Virus genome (UHGV): UHGV-0166527
Reading direction: 5' to 3' (one strand)
Origin: a virus
DNA length: 13,507 bases
Below the pieces are notes generated by a model that was given only the letters and a program-made list of their open reading frames with translations, had not been told where the DNA came from and did no database searches. The position numbers were made by a program, and so were the translations under genes. Shown here piece after piece: positions 2,889 to 11,921 of the stretch; position 1 is the stretch's first letter, and each line of letters begins with the position of its first letter.

Positions 2889-3962
2889 TCATTTGTCGAT
2901 TTCAATTTTGTCCCATTCCCGTCCACGGCTGTCCCTATACCGCGCCGCCATTGAATCTGATTTATGCCCGAGAAGACGTTGAGCAAACTTATCGCCAATC
3001 TGGTTCCGGTATAGCCTCGCTGACAGGCTACGCAGTTCATGGAATGTTGGCGGGTTTCCATCAAATGAGAGTCCAGATGCATTTCTCGCCTTTGTAAAAT
3101 ACTTTGATACTGTTTTCGGGGAAAGCGGATCGTGATGCTTTGATGCGATTATAGTTTCACTGCTGCTGGCCTCCCTGCATTTTTGTAGTGTATCAGCCAA
3201 TGAGATATTGAGCGCGTCAATCGTTAGCGTCAGCGGAATGGCGAGCTTAGCCCCTGTTTTACTCTGCTCAATGTGAAGATGGTTGTCGTTTATGTCTGAC
3301 CATTTCATTCTGCACAAATCGCCCACTCTCTGCCCTGTAACGACAGCCAAATCCATTGCCAGCCTCAGCCAGATTGGGAGAGGTTCGGCTGCATGGTAAA
3401 TCGCGACATACTCATTAGCTGTCAGCCTTGAGCGCCTTACTTCTGACTTTGCTGTGCGGGTTGCTGTTACCGGATTCGTTTCCACATGCCCCTCGGCTAT
3501 TGCCTCACGAAAAACGTCAACAAGGGTTGACCTGATTAATTTTGCGGAAGCTGCTTTACCTTCTGCTACGTAGGTGTTTAGCATTGCTGCCACCTCTTTC
3601 GTTGATATGTCATTGAGCGGTTTGTCCGGCAATTTTCTTCGAATCGCCCTGATTTTGCTGGCGTAGTCGAGTAGAGTTTTCGGTCTGATACCCCTCTCGC
3701 TGAGGATTGTTTCATATCGGTCAAGCCACGCATGAAGAGTGATTGCGTCAGCGCCTTTAATCCTGTCTATCAGTGACTCACGCCTGTTCTCGGATAGCAA
3801 CTCAATATTGGCCTGAATAGCCTCTGAAACTGCTATCCTTCTGTCTCTGCCTAATCCGAACTCTTTACCCGTCCTTGGGTCCCTGTAGCAGTAATATCCA
3901 TTGTTTCTTATATAAAGGTTAGGGGGTAAATCCCGGCGCTCATGACTTCGCCTTCTTCCCAT
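2889..3962 (-). CDS. int: Tyrosine integrase, lambda Int family (357 aa)
   Basis: N-terminus MGRRRSHERRDLPPNLYIRNNGYYCYRDPRTGKEFGLGRDRRIA and C-terminus RGREWDKIEI closely match recalled lambda Int; catalytic motifs TGQRVGDL, HELRSL, LLGHKSD, ARYRD present. Confidence 0.95.
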   Translation of the reverse strand: MGRRRSHERRDLPPNLYIRNNGYYCYRDPRTGKEFGLGRDRRIAVSEAIQANIELLSENRRESLIDRIKGADAITLHAWLDRYETILSERGIRPKTLLDYASKIRAIRRKLPDKPLNDISTKEVAAMLNTYVAEGKAASAKLIRSTLVDVFREAIAEGHVETNPVTATRTAKSEVRRSRLTANEYVAIYHAAEPLPIWLRLAMDLAVVTGQRVGDLCRMKWSDINDNHLHIEQSKTGAKLAIPLTLTIDALNISLADTLQKCREASSSETIIASKHHDPLSPKTVSKYFTKARNASGLSFDGNPPTFHELRSLSARLYRNQIGDKFAQRLLGHKSDSMAARYRDSRGREWDKIEIDK

Positions 3963-4621: not shown

Positions 4622-4648
4622 ATAAAACAAAACTCGCTGTAGCGAGTT
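4622..4648 (-). terminator. Intrinsic terminator (minus strand): stem AACTCGC / loop TACA / GCGAGTT followed by TTGTTTTAT
   Basis: 7-bp perfect stem and U-rich tract read on the minus strand; the U-tract abuts the RBS of the 114-aa gene. Confidence 0.55.
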
Positions 4649-4768
4649 CAGATAAAAGAAATCCCCGCGAGTGCGAGGATTGTTATTGTCTTTGCTTTGT
4701 GCATTTGTCGCACTTTCGGCACCATCCAGATAGGCACATCCGTCCGCAATTAACACATATAGGCCACA

Positions 4769-5047
4769 TCATTTTTCCTCTTTTGGTTTATGAATCTGAA
4801 TGGTCATGCCGCTTTGAGTGGTGGCTACAACGACAGAACCAGGCTGAAGGCTGTTAAGATTGAATGCTTCGTAAAACGAATCCAATGCCAGTGCTTTTTT
4901 ATTCTTTCGGTTCCACCAACGCCATCCCTTGCTACAGGCTACACTGACAATCCACTGTCCACTCCTGTAAGCCATATAAAACCAGATGAGCAAAACCTGA
5001 AGGAAGGCTATCCAGTCAATAATCGTATATTTCGCGAAGGAGTCCAT
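4769..5047 (-). CDS. Small predicted membrane protein (92 aa; hydrophobic N-terminal segments, tryptophan-rich juxtamembrane region, soluble C-terminus)
   Basis: ATG at 5045-5047 with AGGAGG 7 nt upstream and TGATG overlap with the upstream gene stop; hydrophobic stretches YTIIDWIAFLQVLLIWFYMAY and WIVSVA. Confidence 0.55.
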   Translation of the reverse strand: MDSFAKYTIIDWIAFLQVLLIWFYMAYRSGQWIVSVACSKGWRWWNRKNKKALALDSFYEAFNLNSLQPGSVVVATTQSGMTIQIHKPKEEK

Positions 5048-5259
5048 CACTTTACCTCCTGCGCCGCTTTGATGATTGCAGCCAGGCAATTCTTGCACGG
5101 AACCTGAAATGAACCCTGCTCAATGCTCAACAGTGCATGCTGAGCATCCTGAAAAAGCCAGTCTGAAAATTGTGGTACATGTCCGCACCACGTCTCTATT
5201 TCATGCTTTGCAAGCTTGGCGCCGTCACGATAGTCATATTTGATAATGTGCTTACTCAC
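5047..5259 (-). CDS. Hypothetical small protein (70 aa), GTG start
   Basis: GTG at 5257-5259 preceded by AGGAGGTGAAGCC; N-terminus SKHIIKYDY is paralogous to the next gene upstream. Confidence 0.5.
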   Translation of the reverse strand: MSKHIIKYDYRDGAKLAKHEIETWCGHVPQFSDWLFQDAQHALLSIEQGSFQVPCKNCLAAIIKAAQEVK

Positions 5260-5273
5260 GGCTTCACCTCCTG

Positions 5274-5531
5274 CTACTGTGATGCTGGCTGATTATCGTT
5301 AACGTATGCATCAGGAAGCAGATACTGCTTAGCCATCCAGTTATCACACTTCATTTCAGTAATGTATTTTGGCAGTTCACCGTGCTGACAATTGAATAGC
5401 CACCACTGGTCACCCATGCTTTGAGGAATAGCGCGCTCATACGTGATACCAAGCTCGCGAATTACTTCTTGCGGGTGCCTGCTTTCTCCTGAATAAGCAG
5501 CACCCATACAGTCATAGCGTAAGTGTTTCAC
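5274..5531 (-). CDS. Hypothetical small protein (86 aa), GTG start
   Basis: GTG at 5529-5531 preceded by AGGAGGTGAAGCC; N-terminus KHLRYDC; the ORF-track 116-aa version (start 5624) is an in-frame extension lacking an RBS. Confidence 0.5.
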   Translation of the reverse strand: MKHLRYDCMGAAYSGESRHPQEVIRELGITYERAIPQSMGDQWWLFNCQHGELPKYITEMKCDNWMAKQYLLPDAYVNDNQPASQ

Positions 5532-5535
5532 GGCT

Positions 5536-5652
5536 TCACCTCCTGCACAGGCTGAAAATAAACGATGTGATTGCCAAATCCTGAATTGCTGTAATTGCCA
5601 GCATCCAGCCATAAATGCTTTCACTGAAATGCCATGCTAGTGCTGTAATCAC
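5536..5652 (-). CDS. Possible small hydrophobic peptide (38 aa, VITALAWHFSESIYGWMLAITAIQDLAITSFIFSLCRR), GTG start overlapping the stop of the 405-aa gene
   Basis: Hand translation; GTG at 5650-5652 within GTGA overlap, preceded by AGGAGGTTAAGCC; not in the ORF track because it is under 60 aa. Confidence 0.35.
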   Translation of the reverse strand: MITALAWHFSESIYGWMLAITAIQDLAITSFIFSLCRR

Positions 5653-6866
5653 GGCTTAACCTCCTGAGGCGGTTCTGGTAGAGACATCCAGTGAGTTACG
5701 TCATCCAAGATATTTCCTGATAAATACGTGAAAGCTCTATATTTTTTGTAATCAATTGGATTTACAACCCAGTTCCAATATGCGGCCACGATTTCACCTT
5801 GACTAAATGCCAGTAACATTTTGGTGTCTTCCGGCATTCGATCACTACAGCTTATCCAACCATCCGGAGTTACCGGAGAATTGCCATTTACCAAGTCAGC
5901 TCGAACATATAGCGTGTCATCATGGTGCTGATTGTGGCTGCACCACGTTAATTCGCTTAACTCGCCATCTTCTGGCCATACTCCAGCTGTTTGCAGCCAG
6001 ATATGGGCTGGCGCATCTTGGCAAGGTGTATTAACTGGCAACTTGTAAGTTTGGCTTACAGGTTGGCTACCCTGAAGCATGGCAGCGCGGCAGGCATACT
6101 CAACGCCCTTAACTGCATCTGCGCAGTAGTTATAGCGATTGCATTCCACTAATTTCCGTTTGAGTTTTTCAATTGCCTGCGCGACATCAGCCTGTATTAC
6201 AGGAACTGGCGGAACGGCTGTTTGCTCTCGAACGTCATTAGTCGCTATCGGTTCTGCTGCCAACTGGCTGGCATATTTGTTAATGGTAACGATAAGCTCT
6301 TGCTCAGCCTCATCCAGACAATCACCGATACCTCGCCTGTCACCGTCAAAATCATCGAAATCGGCACGAATCTTGGCAACCTTCAGGATTGCGGACAACA
6401 CCTCACTAGGAATTACCGGATAGTTGGTTGATGTTTCCGCGATTTCCCGAAAATTATTGGTTGACGAATTCTTGTTTTCCCGAAAGTTTCCGGACTGAAG
6501 CATGGCGGCGCGGCAGGCGTTCCAGCCATCTGCGTAACAATCTCTGTGTGTCTTGAAATATGTCACCGCCCTTGGTACATCGTTTACGTCTATTTCATCC
6601 GGCACAACCGGCGCAGGTGAGTCAGCATAAACAGGAATAACGTCCGGTTGCTCTTTATTGCTTTCATCCGTTAAAGCCAAGAATAATTTTCCGGCCGGAT
6701 GTTTGAAAATATAAGCAACTGGTTCTGCTTCCAGCGATGCCAGCGCCAACTTGAACGCCTGAAGCTCAATGGCACTGTTGGTATCCAGTCCAAACGGTAA
6801 TTCATCACGATTGGCTTCGTATTCAGCGATAGTTTGCTTCAGCCATTCTTTGGTTAGTTCAGCCAT
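5649..6866 (-). CDS. Phage early-region protein (405 aa) with an internal duplicated motif (ACRAAMLQ) and a C-terminal region reminiscent of DUF551-type phage domains
   Basis: ATG at 6864-6866 (MAELTKEW) chosen because the upstream ATG at 6917 overlaps the preceding gene and lacks an SD; family assignment is from memory and uncertain. Confidence 0.6.
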   Translation of the reverse strand: MAELTKEWLKQTIAEYEANRDELPFGLDTNSAIELQAFKLALASLEAEPVAYIFKHPAGKLFLALTDESNKEQPDVIPVYADSPAPVVPDEIDVNDVPRAVTYFKTHRDCYADGWNACRAAMLQSGNFRENKNSSTNNFREIAETSTNYPVIPSEVLSAILKVAKIRADFDDFDGDRRGIGDCLDEAEQELIVTINKYASQLAAEPIATNDVREQTAVPPVPVIQADVAQAIEKLKRKLVECNRYNYCADAVKGVEYACRAAMLQGSQPVSQTYKLPVNTPCQDAPAHIWLQTAGVWPEDGELSELTWCSHNQHHDDTLYVRADLVNGNSPVTPDGWISCSDRMPEDTKMLLAFSQGEIVAAYWNWVVNPIDYKKYRAFTYLSGNILDDVTHWMSLPEPPQEVKP

Positions 6867-6870
6867 ATCC

Positions 6871-7323
6871 CTAATTCCCCTTGATGCTGACTTTGACGCC
6901 AACCTTGCGAATCTCATCGGCGCATCTGTTCACGATACTCCGGTGAAACTCACAAAAAATTTTCGCCGACTGCGGCCCTAATGGGTGAACATCGTGCGCA
7001 CGCGGCAGTACAACCTCCCGCGCCTCCATGTCAGCAATCCGCTTGTCTTTGGCTTCCAGCTCATCCAGCAGCGCCAGCACGGTAGCTGGATTGGCTGCGG
7101 CGATGAATTCAGCATTGGCCTGCTGTTCTATTTGGAAATCTTCATCGAAACCGCTTTCAGGATGCGCTCCTTCAATTCTGCAAATGGGAATATATCCAGC
7201 AGCCTCGCGATGAATTAGCGCATCATCACCATCAAATCGGCCCTTTCCATATTCGAGCGACCACTCGCCACACGTTGCTTTTTCTGCCTTAGCACGCAGT
7301 GCCTGATAGTCAATCTTGCTCAC
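6871..7323 (-). CDS. Hypothetical phage protein (150 aa), possibly Ead/Ea22-like; GTG start
   Basis: GTG at 7321-7323 preceded by AAAGGAGG 6 nt upstream; N-terminus MSKIDYQALRAKAEKATCGEW resembles recalled Ead/Ea22-like annotations. Confidence 0.55.
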   Translation of the reverse strand: MSKIDYQALRAKAEKATCGEWSLEYGKGRFDGDDALIHREAAGYIPICRIEGAHPESGFDEDFQIEQQANAEFIAAANPATVLALLDELEAKDKRIADMEAREVVLPRAHDVHPLGPQSAKIFCEFHRSIVNRCADEIRKVGVKVSIKGN

Positions 7324-7627
7324 TGGTTGCCTCCTTTGCTGTGCTTTCTAACTTCTGAGTGGTTGTATCAAACTCAAACAACTTAACCACGTCATCAAAC
7401 AGGACATAATCGCCATCAGAATCTTCAGTCATGTCAGCGCCACAATCCTGACCGAACGAGTCACAACCATCCATATCAAGCTCGTATCGCTTGAGTTTTG
7501 CGATATTTGATAAATTCAGCGCCAGTACAGCAAGGTCATAAACCTCTTCGACTGTATACCCTGCGCCATGCCCATACATTTCAATACGGGATATGATTTC
7601 TTCTACACGTTGCTTTGTTATTGCCAT
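7310..7627 (-). CDS. Hypothetical acidic phage protein (105 aa)
   Basis: ATG at 7625-7627 preceded by GGGAGGTGA; stop overlaps the next start. Confidence 0.6.
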   Translation of the reverse strand: MAITKQRVEEIISRIEMYGHGAGYTVEEVYDLAVLALNLSNIAKLKRYELDMDGCDSFGQDCGADMTEDSDGDYVLFDDVVKLFEFDTTTQKLESTAKEATSEQD

Positions 7628-8861: not shown

Positions 8862-9466
8862 TAAGCAGCCGCTCCTTCTAATTCGTCTCGTCTGATGTTG
8901 TAAACGTCCTGCGCTTTGTGCTGCTCCGGTGTGCCTTCGAGCATCTTCCACGCTTTGGCGAACGCCTGTTTAAGCTCTTCTACGGTGTTTTTCTGCATTG
9001 CTGCGTCAGTGAATGCTTTTAGAACCTGTTCAGGCGTAGGTGATGGTTTTGATTGCTTTGCTGCTGCGTTCTGCTGATGTTTATGCTCGTCTGTATCTGC
9101 ATCTTTCGCATCATCAATGCCGAACAAACCATTGAGGCAATACTTGCGTGCATAAGAGCTTGTGGCTCCCGTAACTTGTGCAGAATCCATTCCTTTCTTG
9201 CTTTCTTCCTCTCGTGCAAGAGCGGTTGCTGTATGACTGTTTTCGCCATCAGTAATAGTTGCCGTGGCTTTCACGTAATACCGATCACCAATCAACACAA
9301 CTTCATCGCTGATTGATAAAAACAGACCATTCAGTAACGGCTTAACGCCTTCAAGAATATCTTCGCAGCTTCTGTATTTATATTTACCGAATGAGTTGTA
9401 CTGATTTTTTGGCGCGTTCAGATTCTCCTGAATGGCTGCCAGTCTTGCGTAAAATTCTTTGCTCAT
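8861..9466 (-). CDS. erf: Single-strand annealing protein, ERF family (P22 Erf-like, 201 aa)
   Basis: MSKEFYARLAAIQENLNAPKNQYNSFGKYKYRSCEDILEGVKPLL... closely matches recalled P22 Erf; ATG at 9464-9466. Confidence 0.85.
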   Translation of the reverse strand: MSKEFYARLAAIQENLNAPKNQYNSFGKYKYRSCEDILEGVKPLLNGLFLSISDEVVLIGDRYYVKATATITDGENSHTATALAREEESKKGMDSAQVTGATSSYARKYCLNGLFGIDDAKDADTDEHKHQQNAAAKQSKPSPTPEQVLKAFTDAAMQKNTVEELKQAFAKAWKMLEGTPEQHKAQDVYNIRRDELEGAAA

Positions 9467-9555
9467 ATGTTTGTTCTCAGAATGGACATGGCCCAAGGAA
9501 ATAACGCTGATTTAATACTTCAGTCTTTGCCGCATTTAAAAATACGCGAACACCT

Positions 9556-9726
9556 TCACGATCTCCCTTCTGGCGATACATTAACGCCTGCTGCGTGTAC
9601 ATGCGTCTCTGTAACTTGCTCTCCTTCACTGTGGTTGCAAGTGACATGAATATCTCCTTCGTTACCGATTAAATCTTTCATCTGACGAATGAATTCTTCG
9701 TCTGACCAGTTATCTGTAAAACTCAT
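9556..9726 (-). CDS. Hypothetical small protein (56 aa) in the arf-like position between kil and erf
   Basis: ATG at 9724-9726 overlapping kil stop (ATGA); position analogous to P22 arf but sequence not recognised. Confidence 0.45.
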   Translation of the reverse strand: MSFTDNWSDEEFIRQMKDLIGNEGDIHVTCNHSEGEQVTETHVHAAGVNVSPEGRS

Positions 9727-9875
9727 TTCCTGCGATACCACGGAAGGTTGATAGCTGATTTCATCGCTTTATTTGCTTCAAGCCACATTTTTGAATCACC
9801 AATAAATCTGGCTATTACTGCTTTGTTCTGTGCAGCACGAAGCATCTGGTGATTAATGGCTATTTCATTGCGCAT
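9723..9875 (-). CDS. kil: Kil-like host division inhibitor (50 aa)
   Basis: Hand-translated MRNEIAINHQMLRAAQNKAVIARFIGDSKMWLEANKAMKSAINLPWYRRK; shares the FIGD.KM core with recalled lambda Kil; GGAGG SD upstream; absent from the ORF track (under 60 aa). Confidence 0.6.
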   Translation of the reverse strand: MRNEIAINHQMLRAAQNKAVIARFIGDSKMWLEANKAMKSAINLPWYRRK

Positions 9876-9994
9876 AACGCCTCCAGTTGTTTCTTTGCTG
9901 CTCTGATTAATTGTTTAACTCGGCGTGATAATTCAGATTCGTGCGGGTAGAAAGCGGACATGACGCCGCTACCCGCGAGCTGAAAGTGCATCAT
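9860..9994 (-). CDS. cIII: CIII-like protein (44 aa, FtsH-inhibitor family)
   Basis: MMHFQLAGSGVMSAFYPHESELSRRVKQLIRAAKKQL... resembles the lambda CIII amphipathic core (SESLLERITRKLRDGWKRL); AGGAG SD 6 nt upstream of ATG 9992-9994; overlaps kil start as in lambda. Confidence 0.55.
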   Translation of the reverse strand: MMHFQLAGSGVMSAFYPHESELSRRVKQLIRAAKKQLEALCAMK

Positions 9995-10056
9995 GGGTAA
10001 CTCCTTATATTTGATTGCATAACGAAAATGCCTCTCGTGAAGCATTATTGGTATGC

Positions 10057-10080
10057 GGTAAAGCCGCGCTTGGCGGCTTA
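10057..10080. repeat. Copy 1 of a 23-24 bp intergenic element GGTAAAGCCGCGCTTGGCGGCTTA (contains inverted repeat AAGCCGC/GCGGCTT) overlapping the stop of the 138-aa gene
   Basis: Near-identical to 10517..10540; palindromic core. Confidence 0.6.
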
Positions 10081-10494
10081 TTTGAAGATGTCTATGAAAT
10101 CAAGAACTGATGATATTTCGTGGTTGAACGATTTTCTTTTGTATCTTTCTATCGCAGAATCCACCTGGTGTTTATAGTCATCGTCGTTTGAGTATTTAAC
10201 GAAGCATTCTATTGTCTCAGGCGTTACAGCTATAAGGCTCCACCAACCTTCATCAGATTGATATTCAAATCCCATGCTTTCAAGCCATCCAGCATATTTC
10301 CCTCCAGCATCTTGCCAGTGTGTCTTTTCTGCAAGGAAGCTGTTAACCGTCATATGTGCATCAAGGCATTTATCCAACTGTTTACCATTAAGTAGCCATG
10401 CGCTGACAGTTGCACATCCCAAATCAACTGATTGAGTAGAGATATTGAATTGGTCGTAATTATCTGGATTAACCAGGATATCTGTAATTTCCAT
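10078..10494 (-). CDS. Hypothetical phage protein (138 aa)
   Basis: ATG at 10492-10494 preceded by GGAGGAATT; no recognised family. Confidence 0.6.
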   Translation of the reverse strand: MEITDILVNPDNYDQFNISTQSVDLGCATVSAWLLNGKQLDKCLDAHMTVNSFLAEKTHWQDAGGKYAGWLESMGFEYQSDEGWWSLIAVTPETIECFVKYSNDDDYKHQVDSAIERYKRKSFNHEISSVLDFIDIFK

Positions 10495-10942: not shown

Positions 10943-10970
10943 CCAAAAATAAAGGCCGACTATGCGGCCT
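10943..10970 (-). terminator. Intrinsic terminator (minus strand): stem AGGCCG / loop CATAGT / CGGCCT followed by TTATTTTTGG; the loop contains the stop codon of the 207-aa gene
   Basis: 6-bp GC-rich stem plus U-rich tract read on the minus strand; tL1-like position after the N operon proximal genes. Confidence 0.6.
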
Positions 10971-11583
10971 CGGAAGGAAGTCCAATCATCTTATTCAAAT
11001 CTTCTACCCGTAAAGCAGGAAGTGCTGTACTTGCTTTGTCTGCTTCTTTTGGTAGCAATTCTTTGCTTTCAGGCCAAACTTCAATAAGTCGCTTAACTGT
11101 TGTGACTGAGTTCAAAGCAGCCCATACATTTGATTCGATATCCTTTTTCTTGGCTTCAAGTTTTTGTTGCAATGCGCAGATTTCATCAAACCTTTTTGTT
11201 ATTTCGTGTTCTGCGTCAAACATGCATTTATCTTTGGTCGGAGTAGGGAGCAATATATCTTCGCCGTTGCCGTCTTTCCCATATGAATGCCATCCAACCC
11301 TTCTGCCAGATACAGTCAGATAAATCGAAGTAGAACGAACATCGCATGAGTAAAATGAACATCCCATCTTTTCAATTTCTTCACTTATAGCTACTAACCT
11401 GGATGATAACTGATCCACTTCATCAGTTTTCTTTTTACCGCCAAACGCAACAACCCTGGCGTCAAGTGCAAGCTGGTTCTTTAACCTTGTTACTTCTTCA
11501 AGTTCAGTGAAAACCCCAGACTTAATTAAAGCGTTACGAGCGATTTTCTCTTTCATTCTCGTAGTTAAGCGGATTGATGACAT
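10960..11583 (-). CDS. Hypothetical protein (207 aa) immediately downstream of N, upstream of the first terminator
   Basis: ATG at 11581-11583 (MSSIRLTTRMKEKIARNAL...) preceded by GAGAGGAA; soluble, no recognised family; occupies the ral/sieB accessory slot. Confidence 0.65.
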   Translation of the reverse strand: MSSIRLTTRMKEKIARNALIKSGVFTELEEVTRLKNQLALDARVVAFGGKKKTDEVDQLSSRLVAISEEIEKMGCSFYSCDVRSTSIYLTVSGRRVGWHSYGKDGNGEDILLPTPTKDKCMFDAEHEITKRFDEICALQQKLEAKKKDIESNVWAALNSVTTVKRLIEVWPESKELLPKEADKASTALPALRVEDLNKMIGLPSEAA

Positions 11584-11594
11584 ATTAATTCCTC

Positions 11595-11921
11595 TCAAAT
11601 AAGTGGTTTGCTGCCTAATTTCATTTTCTGGCGACCAACACAAGTCACACCCATTTCACTGCGTGGCTTGCTGTACCATGTGCGCTGATTCTTGCGTTCA
11701 ATACGTTGCAGGTTGCTTTCAATCTGTTCGTGGTATTCAGCCAGCACCGTAAGGTCTATCGGATTCAGTGCGCTTTCTACTCGTGATTTCGGTTTGCGAT
11801 TCAGCGAGAGAATAGGGCGGTTAACTGGCTTTGCGCTTACCCCAACCAACAGGGGATTTGCTGCTTTCCATTGAGCCTGTTTCTCTGCGCGACGTTCGCG
11901 GCGGCGTGTTTGTGCATCCAT
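11595..11921 (-). CDS. N: Antitermination protein N (lambda-type, 108 aa)
   Basis: MDAQTRRRERRAEKQAQWKAANPLLVGVSAKPVNRPILSLNRKPKSRVESALNPIDLTVLAEYH... matches recalled lambda N including the arginine-rich motif; AGGAGA SD upstream of ATG 11919-11921. Confidence 0.9.
   Translation of the reverse strand: MDAQTRRRERRAEKQAQWKAANPLLVGVSAKPVNRPILSLNRKPKSRVESALNPIDLTVLAEYHEQIESNLQRIERKNQRTWYSKPRSEMGVTCVGRQKMKLGSKPLI

Follow-up and report, generated by a model that had tools for sequence, protein, structure and literature searches.

How does a phage genome come to hold a row of small genes joined, one after another, by the same short sequence? The question is raised by virus genome UHGV-0166527, the whole analyzed stretch of which (13,507 nucleotides) is referred to here as the window. 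On its minus strand, four copies of a junction motif link an Ea22-like gene of 422 residues with a C-terminal DUF551 domain, a 38-residue open reading frame (ORF), a gene of 85 residues, a gene of 70 residues, and a DUF4752 gene. The explanation we favor, with a probability of about 0.72, is that the repeat plays two parts, as a translational-coupling junction and as a joint for the exchange, stacking, and deletion of accessory mini-genes.

The window consists of Escherichia coli chromosome and a lambdoid prophage lying next to torS, which occupies positions 50-2794 and is 97-99% identical to that of many strains. The early-left operon of the prophage follows torS and is encoded on the minus strand. 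A lambda-type int gene (2889-3962) and xis come first with rising coordinate, that is, opposite to transcription, and the complete order is int, xis, a 114-residue gene, the cassette region, an Ead/Ea22 gene, DUF2737, Abc2, Erf, cIII, an Nmad5 protein, N, and CI. This order, from int/xis to N/CI, places the cassettes in the exo-xis ("ea") region of the prophage, a variable and poorly characterized region transcribed from pL (PMC10834534).

Four copies of one junction motif

The core CAGGAGGTNAAG occurs exactly on the minus strand at 5655-5666, 5534-5545, 5262-5273, and 5050-5061. With up to one mismatch allowed, five matches were observed against 0.16 expected, and none of 200 shuffled sequences reached five. 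A repeat search returned one family of four 19-nucleotide (nt) direct copies on the minus strand, at 5649-5667 (J1), 5528-5546 (J2), 5256-5274 (J3), and 5044-5062 (J4), with spacings of 121, 272, and 212 nt; the junctions showed neither inverted repeats nor an attC-like structure. Exact matching, shuffling, and repeat search all bear out the fourfold motif reported in a preliminary description of this DNA, which had the four sites right but gave ranges with three extra bases at the 5' end. The 18-mer of J1-J3 is CAGGAGGTNAAGCCGTGA and that of J4 is CAGGAGGTAAAGTGATG, with J2 and J3 being identical over 19 nt.

J1 (TCAGGAGGTTAAGCCGTGA) encodes the QEVKP-stop of the 422-residue gene and contains a 7-nt Shine-Dalgarno (SD) sequence, and the GTG of the 38-residue ORF overlaps the TGA stop (GTGA). 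In J2 (GCAGGAGGTGAAGCCGTGA), with a 9-nt SD (AGGAGGTGA), the TGA stop of the 38-residue ORF lies inside the SD and the GTG of the 85-residue gene follows 4 nt later. The same 19 nt form J3, where the TAG of the 85-residue gene is positioned immediately 5' of the motif and the GTG is the start of the 70-residue gene. J4 (GCAGGAGGTAAAGTGATGG) encodes the QEVK-stop of the 70-residue gene, and the ATG of the DUF4752 gene overlaps its TGA (TGATG). Upstream stop and start overlap at two junctions, J1 and J4; at J2 the stop lies 4 nt upstream of the start, and at J3 14 nt upstream. This geometry and the SD matches agree with the initial proposal that each copy provides the SD and start of the next gene while overlapping or abutting a stop, and that two copies, J1 and J4, also encode the C-terminal QEVK(P) of the preceding protein. 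The 15 nt before J3 are a three-mismatch copy of the canonical CCAGCAGCACCGCAG (PAAPQ) boundary, and one of these three mismatches creates the TAG stop of the 85-residue gene.

The junction as a translation signal

The SD is AGGAGGU at J1 and J4 (7 nt) and AGGAGGUGA at J2 and J3 (9 nt), each a perfect complement to the 3' end of 16S rRNA; AGGAGGUGA is the exact complement of that end. The calculated SD/anti-SD duplex energies are -11.5 kcal/mol for J1, -11.7 kcal/mol for J4, and -16.2 kcal/mol for both J2 and J3, against a background of all 22-nt windows of the minus strand with a mean of -4.0 and a first percentile of -12.1 kcal/mol. The spacer between SD and start is 4-7 nt, and the start is GTG in three of the four junctions and ATG at J4. 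Across the array the SD is positioned inside the upstream ORF, 4-9 nt before the start, with the stop overlapping or abutting that start, an anatomy that points to translational coupling of successive genes. Replacing CAGGAGGTG by CAAGAAGTC in the SD would leave Q-E-V encoded.

Folding of the four junctions gave z-scores of approximately 0, with no RNA structural element and no sequestering structure predicted, and independent initiation of the downstream genes is therefore also possible. An Rfam search at a permissive threshold returned only a chance Leu-leader match outside the array. There are no promoter-like or terminator-like sites on the minus strand within 5670-4770, and neither an internal promoter nor an antisense feature was found in the cassette array; terminator-like hairpins occur only downstream, at 4681-4630. 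The cassettes are not flanked by a promoter and terminator of their own, as an inserted moron gene would be. The downstream element (4630-4681, minus strand) comprises two consecutive terminator-like hairpins, each with a T-run, between the array and the 114-residue gene, and in mEp213 and E. coli prophages the second hairpin is likewise conserved ahead of the homologue of that gene.

Homology breaks at the junctions

The region 4700-5800 was compared by megablast with 50,697 phage records and 5426 complete E. coli genomes. The matching blocks start or stop at query positions 127-151 (J1), 256 (J2), 528 (J3), 732-739 (J4), and 1026 (the 3' end of DUF4752). In most of the E. coli and phage sequences that match DUF4752, the match starts at 732-739, corresponding to window positions 5069-5062 at J4, and many matches end at 1026, corresponding to 4775. 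In a local blastn comparison with 168 related loci, all ends of high-scoring segment pairs between 5700 and 4760 lie no more than approximately 35 nt from a junction, with none inside a cassette, and 72 such ends from other phages fall at 5650-5669 (J1). The homology block shared with mEp213 and IME10 begins at J3. The breakpoints coincide with the motif, as is characteristic of a boundary sequence.

Variants of the array differ at the same positions. E. coli E06 lacks exactly 5274-5545, the 272 bp from J2 to J3, and the flanks are identical at 120 of 121 positions (J1-J2) and 510 of 512 (J3 onward). In CAVP773 the DUF551 gene is joined directly to DUF4752 and all three cassettes are missing, and E. 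coli ZF8-1 is identical at 783 of 784 positions from J2 onward (3') and unrelated 5' of J2, where it carries a different gene of 61 residues. In E. coli the two genes usually adjoin, with DUF4752 next after DUF551. Of the 5426 complete genomes, 705 have matches to the region, the majority of these matches being to DUF4752. This gene is the common partner of DUF551 genes and is located directly after DUF551 in most of 60 rows sampled from 706 matching records. The window holds an unusually long stack, with the 38-, 85-, and 70-residue cassettes between the DUF551 gene and DUF4752; only one of the complete genomes (ET826) shares the four-junction array.

Recurrence in other phages and a shared protein tail

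The 18-mer CAGGAGGTNAAGCCGTGA is present in 112 IMG/VR viral contigs, with a rough chance expectation of fewer than 10. The preliminary description had counted repeats that are standard in many phages as evidence against its own reading; these contigs show that this is the case, the motif being common and not special to this locus. In the subset with enterobacterial G+C content (75 of the 112 contigs, 78 junctions), 72 junctions close an upstream ORF of at least 50 residues with QEVKP, and AAPQQEVKP is carried by 47 of these junctions. The tail sits behind at least 10 unrelated C-terminal domains, including DUF551 (...THWMPLP), a CPDCGNKRCPHAND zinc ribbon, and an HNH-endonuclease-like protein, and the genes of 23-150 residues that come after the motif belong to approximately 29 unrelated families. 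In total the 18-mer is flanked by 72 distinct combinations of an upstream and a downstream family, and the enterobacterial subset brings together 44 upstream contexts and those ~29 downstream families. One short sequence is accordingly found between flanks that are non-homologous among phages, which is the other property of a boundary sequence, and the identity extends to ~32 nt in the canonical enterobacterial form CAGCAGCACCGCAGCAGGAGGTGAAGCCGTGA. At least four such junctions occur in 3 of 205 loci examined. In one IMG/VR contig (L021), a 195-residue HNH-endonuclease-like ORF ends ...SWSHLPLPAAPQQEVKP, which is the C-terminal tail of the DUF551 type; the ORF looks like an insertion into, or a fusion to, the end of a DUF551 gene.

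An unbiased comparison set was provided by 78 close relatives of the DUF551 domain of the window. Thirty-one of these end PEPPL-stop without a junction, and the remainder share CCGCCGCAGGAGG plus a spacer specific to the downstream gene. The tails observed are QEVK-ATG before DUF4752, QEVNRG before an ASCH-like gene, and QEVNQ, QEAK, and others. The family of the 70-residue protein shows the same set of tails, including a member that ends QEVNRG and continues with exactly the same CAGGAGGTTAACCGTGGCTAACCTGCAA as the DUF551 genes, and for the same downstream gene the two families have identical DNA from CAGGAGGT onward. Because the same tail and the same DNA are found in unrelated upstream families, the alignments assign the tail to the initiation region of the downstream gene and suggest the CAGGAGGT core as the point of exchange.

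Other junctions of this kind were observed in the operon. A second recurrent junction, AAAGGAGGCAACCAGTGA (...KGGNQ-stop/GTG), is located at 7323-7345 on the minus strand before Ead/Ea22-like genes starting MSKIDYQ, and is also present in the loci L001 (~160-180), L002 (~410-432), and L005 (~155-176). A third strong-SD junction, GGGAGGTGAGCAAAAATG, precedes a 105-residue gene at 7627. The conserved junctions of this operon belong to several families.

Outside the enterobacterial phages, an IMG/VR contig with 63% G+C that encodes DNA polymerase I (L094) contains five tandem copies of AGGAGGTGAAGCC(G/A)TGA at 8922-10370. These join ORFs of 55, 82, 80, 25, and 128 residues, several of which end (E/K)EVKP, and the five-copy array has no relative in the phage collection. 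It represents either convergence on an ideal coupling junction or a wider spread of the motif. A scan of 185,579 species genomes for the 18-mer gave approximately the chance number of matches, estimated at ~70 in 596 Gb, and among the matches listed most are in high-G+C genomes (Nonomuraea, Nocardia). Nonomuraea and related actinomycetes recur among these listed matches, which may reflect a conserved operon junction there.

A conserved gene of 38 residues

The hydrophobic mini-gene between J1 and J2 (5536-5652, minus strand; MITALAWHFSESIYGWMLAITAIQDLAITSFIFSLCRR) starts at the GTG at 5650-5652 and is unannotated in E. coli RefSeq records. Relatives were sought by tblastn against phages and by pattern scans, and six distinct DNA versions were obtained from E. 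coli prophages, IMG/VR contigs, and Klebsiella phage VLCpiS13d. All versions keep the frame, are 34-41 residues long, and start in a QE(V/K)KP-type junction. The variable sites are distributed 12/8/23 over the three codon positions, and in the comparison with one diverged copy (L030) third positions account for 17 of 28 differences (p = 0.003). Stops (1-4) interrupt both other frames in every version. In the Klebsiella phage the homologue is annotated as gp47, with 34 residues and an ATG start. The third-position substitutions, the kept frame, and the stops in the other frames together indicate that the ORF, noted in the preliminary description as lying outside the ORF track, is a conserved protein-coding gene missed or mis-framed by PGAP. 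In E06 PGAP leaves a gap of 117 bp at this position. In ET826 (L002 1576-1926, WP_137598415.1, corresponding to window 5274-5624) it calls a protein of 116 residues, in which the 85-residue gene is extended through the 38-residue ORF in another frame; this upstream extension is probably an annotation error, since its frame has stops in diverged copies.

The gene is rare: of the 5426 complete E. coli genomes, 3 carry it. A single stretch of the peptide is moderately hydrophobic, with a maximum 19-residue hydropathy of 1.73, and the peptide has no match in Pfam, PHROGs, PADLOC, or NCBIfam. More speculatively, a +1 frameshift at AGG-AGG-TGA at the end of the ORF would fuse the peptide to the following gene, because the downstream start is always in the +1 register; however, the L320 and Klebsiella homologues have not kept the AGG-AGG. 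Directly after gp47 in the Klebsiella phage (L118, ~2122-2214) there is an unannotated, strongly hydrophobic ORF of ~30 residues (MKPYIIRRLIAASLLAFWISIALAFYFILR) with its own GGGAGG SD.

Neighboring genes of the array

The longest ORF of the Ea22-like gene with C-terminal DUF551 (Pfam E = 5.9e-20) spans 5649-6917 on the minus strand and gives the length of 422 residues. The true start is likely the ATG at 6866 (MAELTKEW); the annotated starts of relatives (L002, L003) correspond to this ATG, and a start at 6917 overlaps the upstream Ead gene. The protein is itself a patchwork, because 13 different PHROGs match separate segments of it.

The gene between J2 and J3 (5274-5531, minus strand; GTG at 5529-5531, stop at 5274-5276) encodes 85 residues, not 86 as initially stated, and its family is limited to Enterobacteriaceae prophages. 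The AlphaFold model shows a compact α/β domain with a predicted local distance difference test score of 90.9 overall and 53 for the last block, and the junction-encoded tail is predicted to be the only low-confidence, disordered part. The 70-residue gene (5047-5259, minus strand) belongs to phrog_4090; the protein is conserved except for its last 2-5 residues, which differ according to the gene that follows. The DUF4752 gene (4769-5047, minus strand; Pfam E = 3.7e-35) encodes 92 residues with an N-terminal hydrophobic segment and a maximum 19-residue hydropathy of 1.78. Weak WD40 matches to this Trp-rich protein were dismissed as compositional. Searches of the cassette proteins against Pfam, PHROGs, PADLOC, and NCBIfam returned only DUF551, DUF4752, Ead_Ea22, and PHROGs of unknown function, fold searches with the models of the 85- and 70-residue proteins gave no informative match or functional lead, and a PDB sequence search found nothing relevant.

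Downstream of DUF4752 lies a Cys-rich ORF of 29 residues (4683-4772, minus strand; MMWPICVNCGRMCLSGWCRKCDKCTKQRQ), the ATG of which overlaps the DUF4752 stop (ATGA) at a different junction, AAAGAGGAAAAATGATG, that is also a homology breakpoint. In mEp213 and several E. coli prophages the ORF recurs with little or no change and is unannotated, mEp213 being annotated in another frame. It is probably a missed gene. Farther away, between N and cIII, the nucleotide modification associated domain 5 (Nmad5) protein has 227 residues (10963-11643, minus strand) and a full-length match with E = 1e-69.

Discussion

The repeat is best understood as a portable gene-junction module of the pL-transcribed exo-xis region. 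As RNA, it could allow ribosomes ending one small gene to start the next. Because the signal for the next gene lies within the upstream reading frame, it puts one and the same meaningless ending on unrelated proteins, which is QEVK(P) or, in another frame, RR. At the DNA level, a sequence common to many unrelated gene pairs could act as a crossover point. The stretch shared is at least 8-12 nt, amounts to 18 nt here, and reaches ~32 nt in the canonical enterobacterial form. At the motif, phages and prophages may swap small accessory genes, lose them, or gather them in arrays. The agent would probably be the single-strand-annealing recombinase of the phage itself, here Erf. Rad52-like recombinases, Erf among them, act on homologies that are short or diverged, ~30 bp being the minimum for Red-beta (PMC3945230).

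An alternative explanation is that the motif is only a translation signal. It would recur through selection favoring a near-perfect SD combined with an overlapping stop and start, together with common descent of the 3' ends of Ea22/DUF551-type genes, and the joints would be produced by illegitimate recombination at random sites, with selection keeping those at gene boundaries, as in a Hendrix-type model. The exact complementarity of AGGAGGUGA to the 16S rRNA 3' end is in keeping with this explanation, and some of the recurrence may be convergent, as the motif is partly an optimal SD. The unrelated 63% G+C contig carries the same 17-mer five times, and the bacterial-genome matches, mostly in high-G+C genomes, are probably due to chance. 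Illegitimate recombination with selection would also put breakpoints at gene boundaries, many phage mosaic joints have no conserved boundary sequence (PMC3233612), and many of the loci in the breakpoint statistics were picked for containing the motif. The identity common to all junction types is only ~8-12 nt (GCAGGAGGT) and the 18 nt shared here fall below the ~30 bp quoted for efficient Red-beta recombination (PMC3945230), so that crossovers at the motif would be rare or microhomology-mediated. These points weigh against a role of the motif in recombination. However, the identity reaches positions outside the SD (the AGCC spacer, GTGA, and 14 further upstream nt in the 32-nt form) with both flanks unrelated, the joins are precise and in register with ~29 downstream gene families, and variants differ by exactly one repeat-to-repeat unit. 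Since identical non-SD bases recur between unrelated flanks and variants differ by exact repeat units, homology-guided events are favored over random joins with selection, and we consider an explanation by translation alone to be unlikely.

The remaining proposals concern the cargo of the array or the origin of the repeat. The preliminary description suggested that the small genes form a toxin or abortive-infection module, and a toxin-antitoxin arrangement may be added, with the 38-residue peptide and the DUF4752 membrane protein as effectors. Each of these has one hydrophobic segment (1.73 and 1.78, respectively), and prophage accessory regions often carry defence genes. The module is very improbable in view of the lack of any match in PADLOC, the toxin families of Pfam and NCBIfam, or solved structures, of any internal promoter, antisense feature, or Rfam match, and of any fixed association between the partners: in 8 of 14 loci the 38-residue gene has none of the other three (85-residue, 70-residue, DUF4752) beside it, the 85-residue gene is missing from E06, CAVP773 lacks three cassette genes, and DUF4752 normally stands directly after DUF551. 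The same description suggested that the array results from tandem duplication of one gene-start module, the 85- and 70-residue genes being diverged paralogues with related N termini, and this is not sustained. J2 and J3 are indeed identical over 19 nt and the N termini are superficially alike (MKHLRYDC and MSKHIIKYDY), but BLASTP gives E = 0.28 for a stretch that is not N-terminal, many unrelated downstream genes also start MSK... or MK..., each family has its own distribution and partners and assorts independently, and the predicted folds differ, with a β-α-β domain in one case and a β-hairpin with two helices in the other. Duplication is thereby left with hardly any probability. Even less credence is given to the idea that the repeats are sites of a dedicated site-specific recombinase in an integron-like cassette system. 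Promoterless, co-oriented small cassettes between repeats, individually present or absent among genomes, would fit such a system, but the only member of the tyrosine recombinases present, a lambda-type Int, carries an arm-binding domain and is partnered by Xis. Moreover, neither inverted repeats nor an attC-like structure are seen in the repeat, and SD, spacer, and start account for it fully.

A junction that both couples translation and serves as a recombination joint, as favored here, resembles several known systems. Boundary sequences belong to the modular theory of Susskind and Botstein, and seven of them were reportedly described for HK620 and related lambdoids by Clark et al. in 2001. 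The motif string and QEVKP were not found in the phage papers searched, a coverage that is incomplete and in which the HK620 boundary sequences were not compared. That conserved boundary or linker sequences are foci of recombination in lambdoid phages is an established idea (PMC3233612); another study of lambdoid mosaicism (PMC9836094) contains nothing on breakpoints or linkers. The junctions described here have in common with lambdoid boundary sequences that a short conserved sequence marks the borders of genes or modules in the early ("metabolic") half of the genome, that its flanks are non-homologous, and that it coincides with mosaic breakpoints. In contrast to these, the motif is nothing more than the next gene's SD, spacer, and start, separates single mini-genes instead of functional modules, and is tandemly repeated in one genome. 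Translationally coupled overlapping genes (ATGA/GTGA) show the geometry of J1 and J4, with the SD 4-7 nt before the start, and likewise pair weak GTG starts with very strong SDs. The present case differs in that the same 18-19 nt are used four times and shared across unrelated gene pairs in many phages, and in that the stop precedes the start by 4 nt at J2 and 14 nt at J3, with no overlap.

The relaxed recombination by Rad52-like recombinases described by De Paepe et al. (2014, PMC3945230) has its counterpart in the Erf and Abc2 encoded by the prophage and in mosaics flanked by short identities, whereas the identities here, of 8-32 nt, are at or below the lengths tested in that work. The exo-xis region of lambda and Shiga toxin (Stx) phages (ea22, orf60a, orf61, orf63, and orf73; PMC10834534, PMC8614690) has the same position between xis and the recombination genes, the same operon, and an Ea22-like coiled-coil gene with variable C-terminal domains including DUF551. 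Lambda orf60a, orf61, orf63, and orf73 are all absent from the prophage studied here, and its cargo instead comprises the 38-, 85-, and 70-residue genes, DUF4752, and the 29-residue Cys-rich ORF. Integrons also contain expandable arrays of promoterless small genes with a repeated separator; in the present array there is no integron integrase, attC structure, or attI, and exchange would be by homology and not site-specific. A broader proposal, which we regard as tentative and somewhat doubtful, is that the junction is a recombination linker for integrase-free, integron-like arrays of mini-genes, built and pruned by single-strand-annealing recombinases in several phage lineages, including the 63% G+C phage, and carrying unannotated conserved micro-proteins such as the 38-residue membrane peptide.

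The locus clearly exemplifies a type of phage mosaicism that is already known and reveals no new kind of system. Its value lies in providing a clean sequence-level case for an old debate, whether mosaic joints form at conserved linkers or at random sites followed by selection, with the same 18-32 nt at dozens of different joints and natural variants that differ by exactly one repeat-to-repeat unit. It adds the conserved 38-residue gene, and probably the Cys-rich one of 29 residues, to those missed or mis-framed by standard annotation, and these corrections are of practical use. It also explains the QEVK(P)-like tails on many unrelated small phage proteins as a by-product of the ribosome-binding site of the next gene, to be ignored in family alignments and trimmed from expression constructs.

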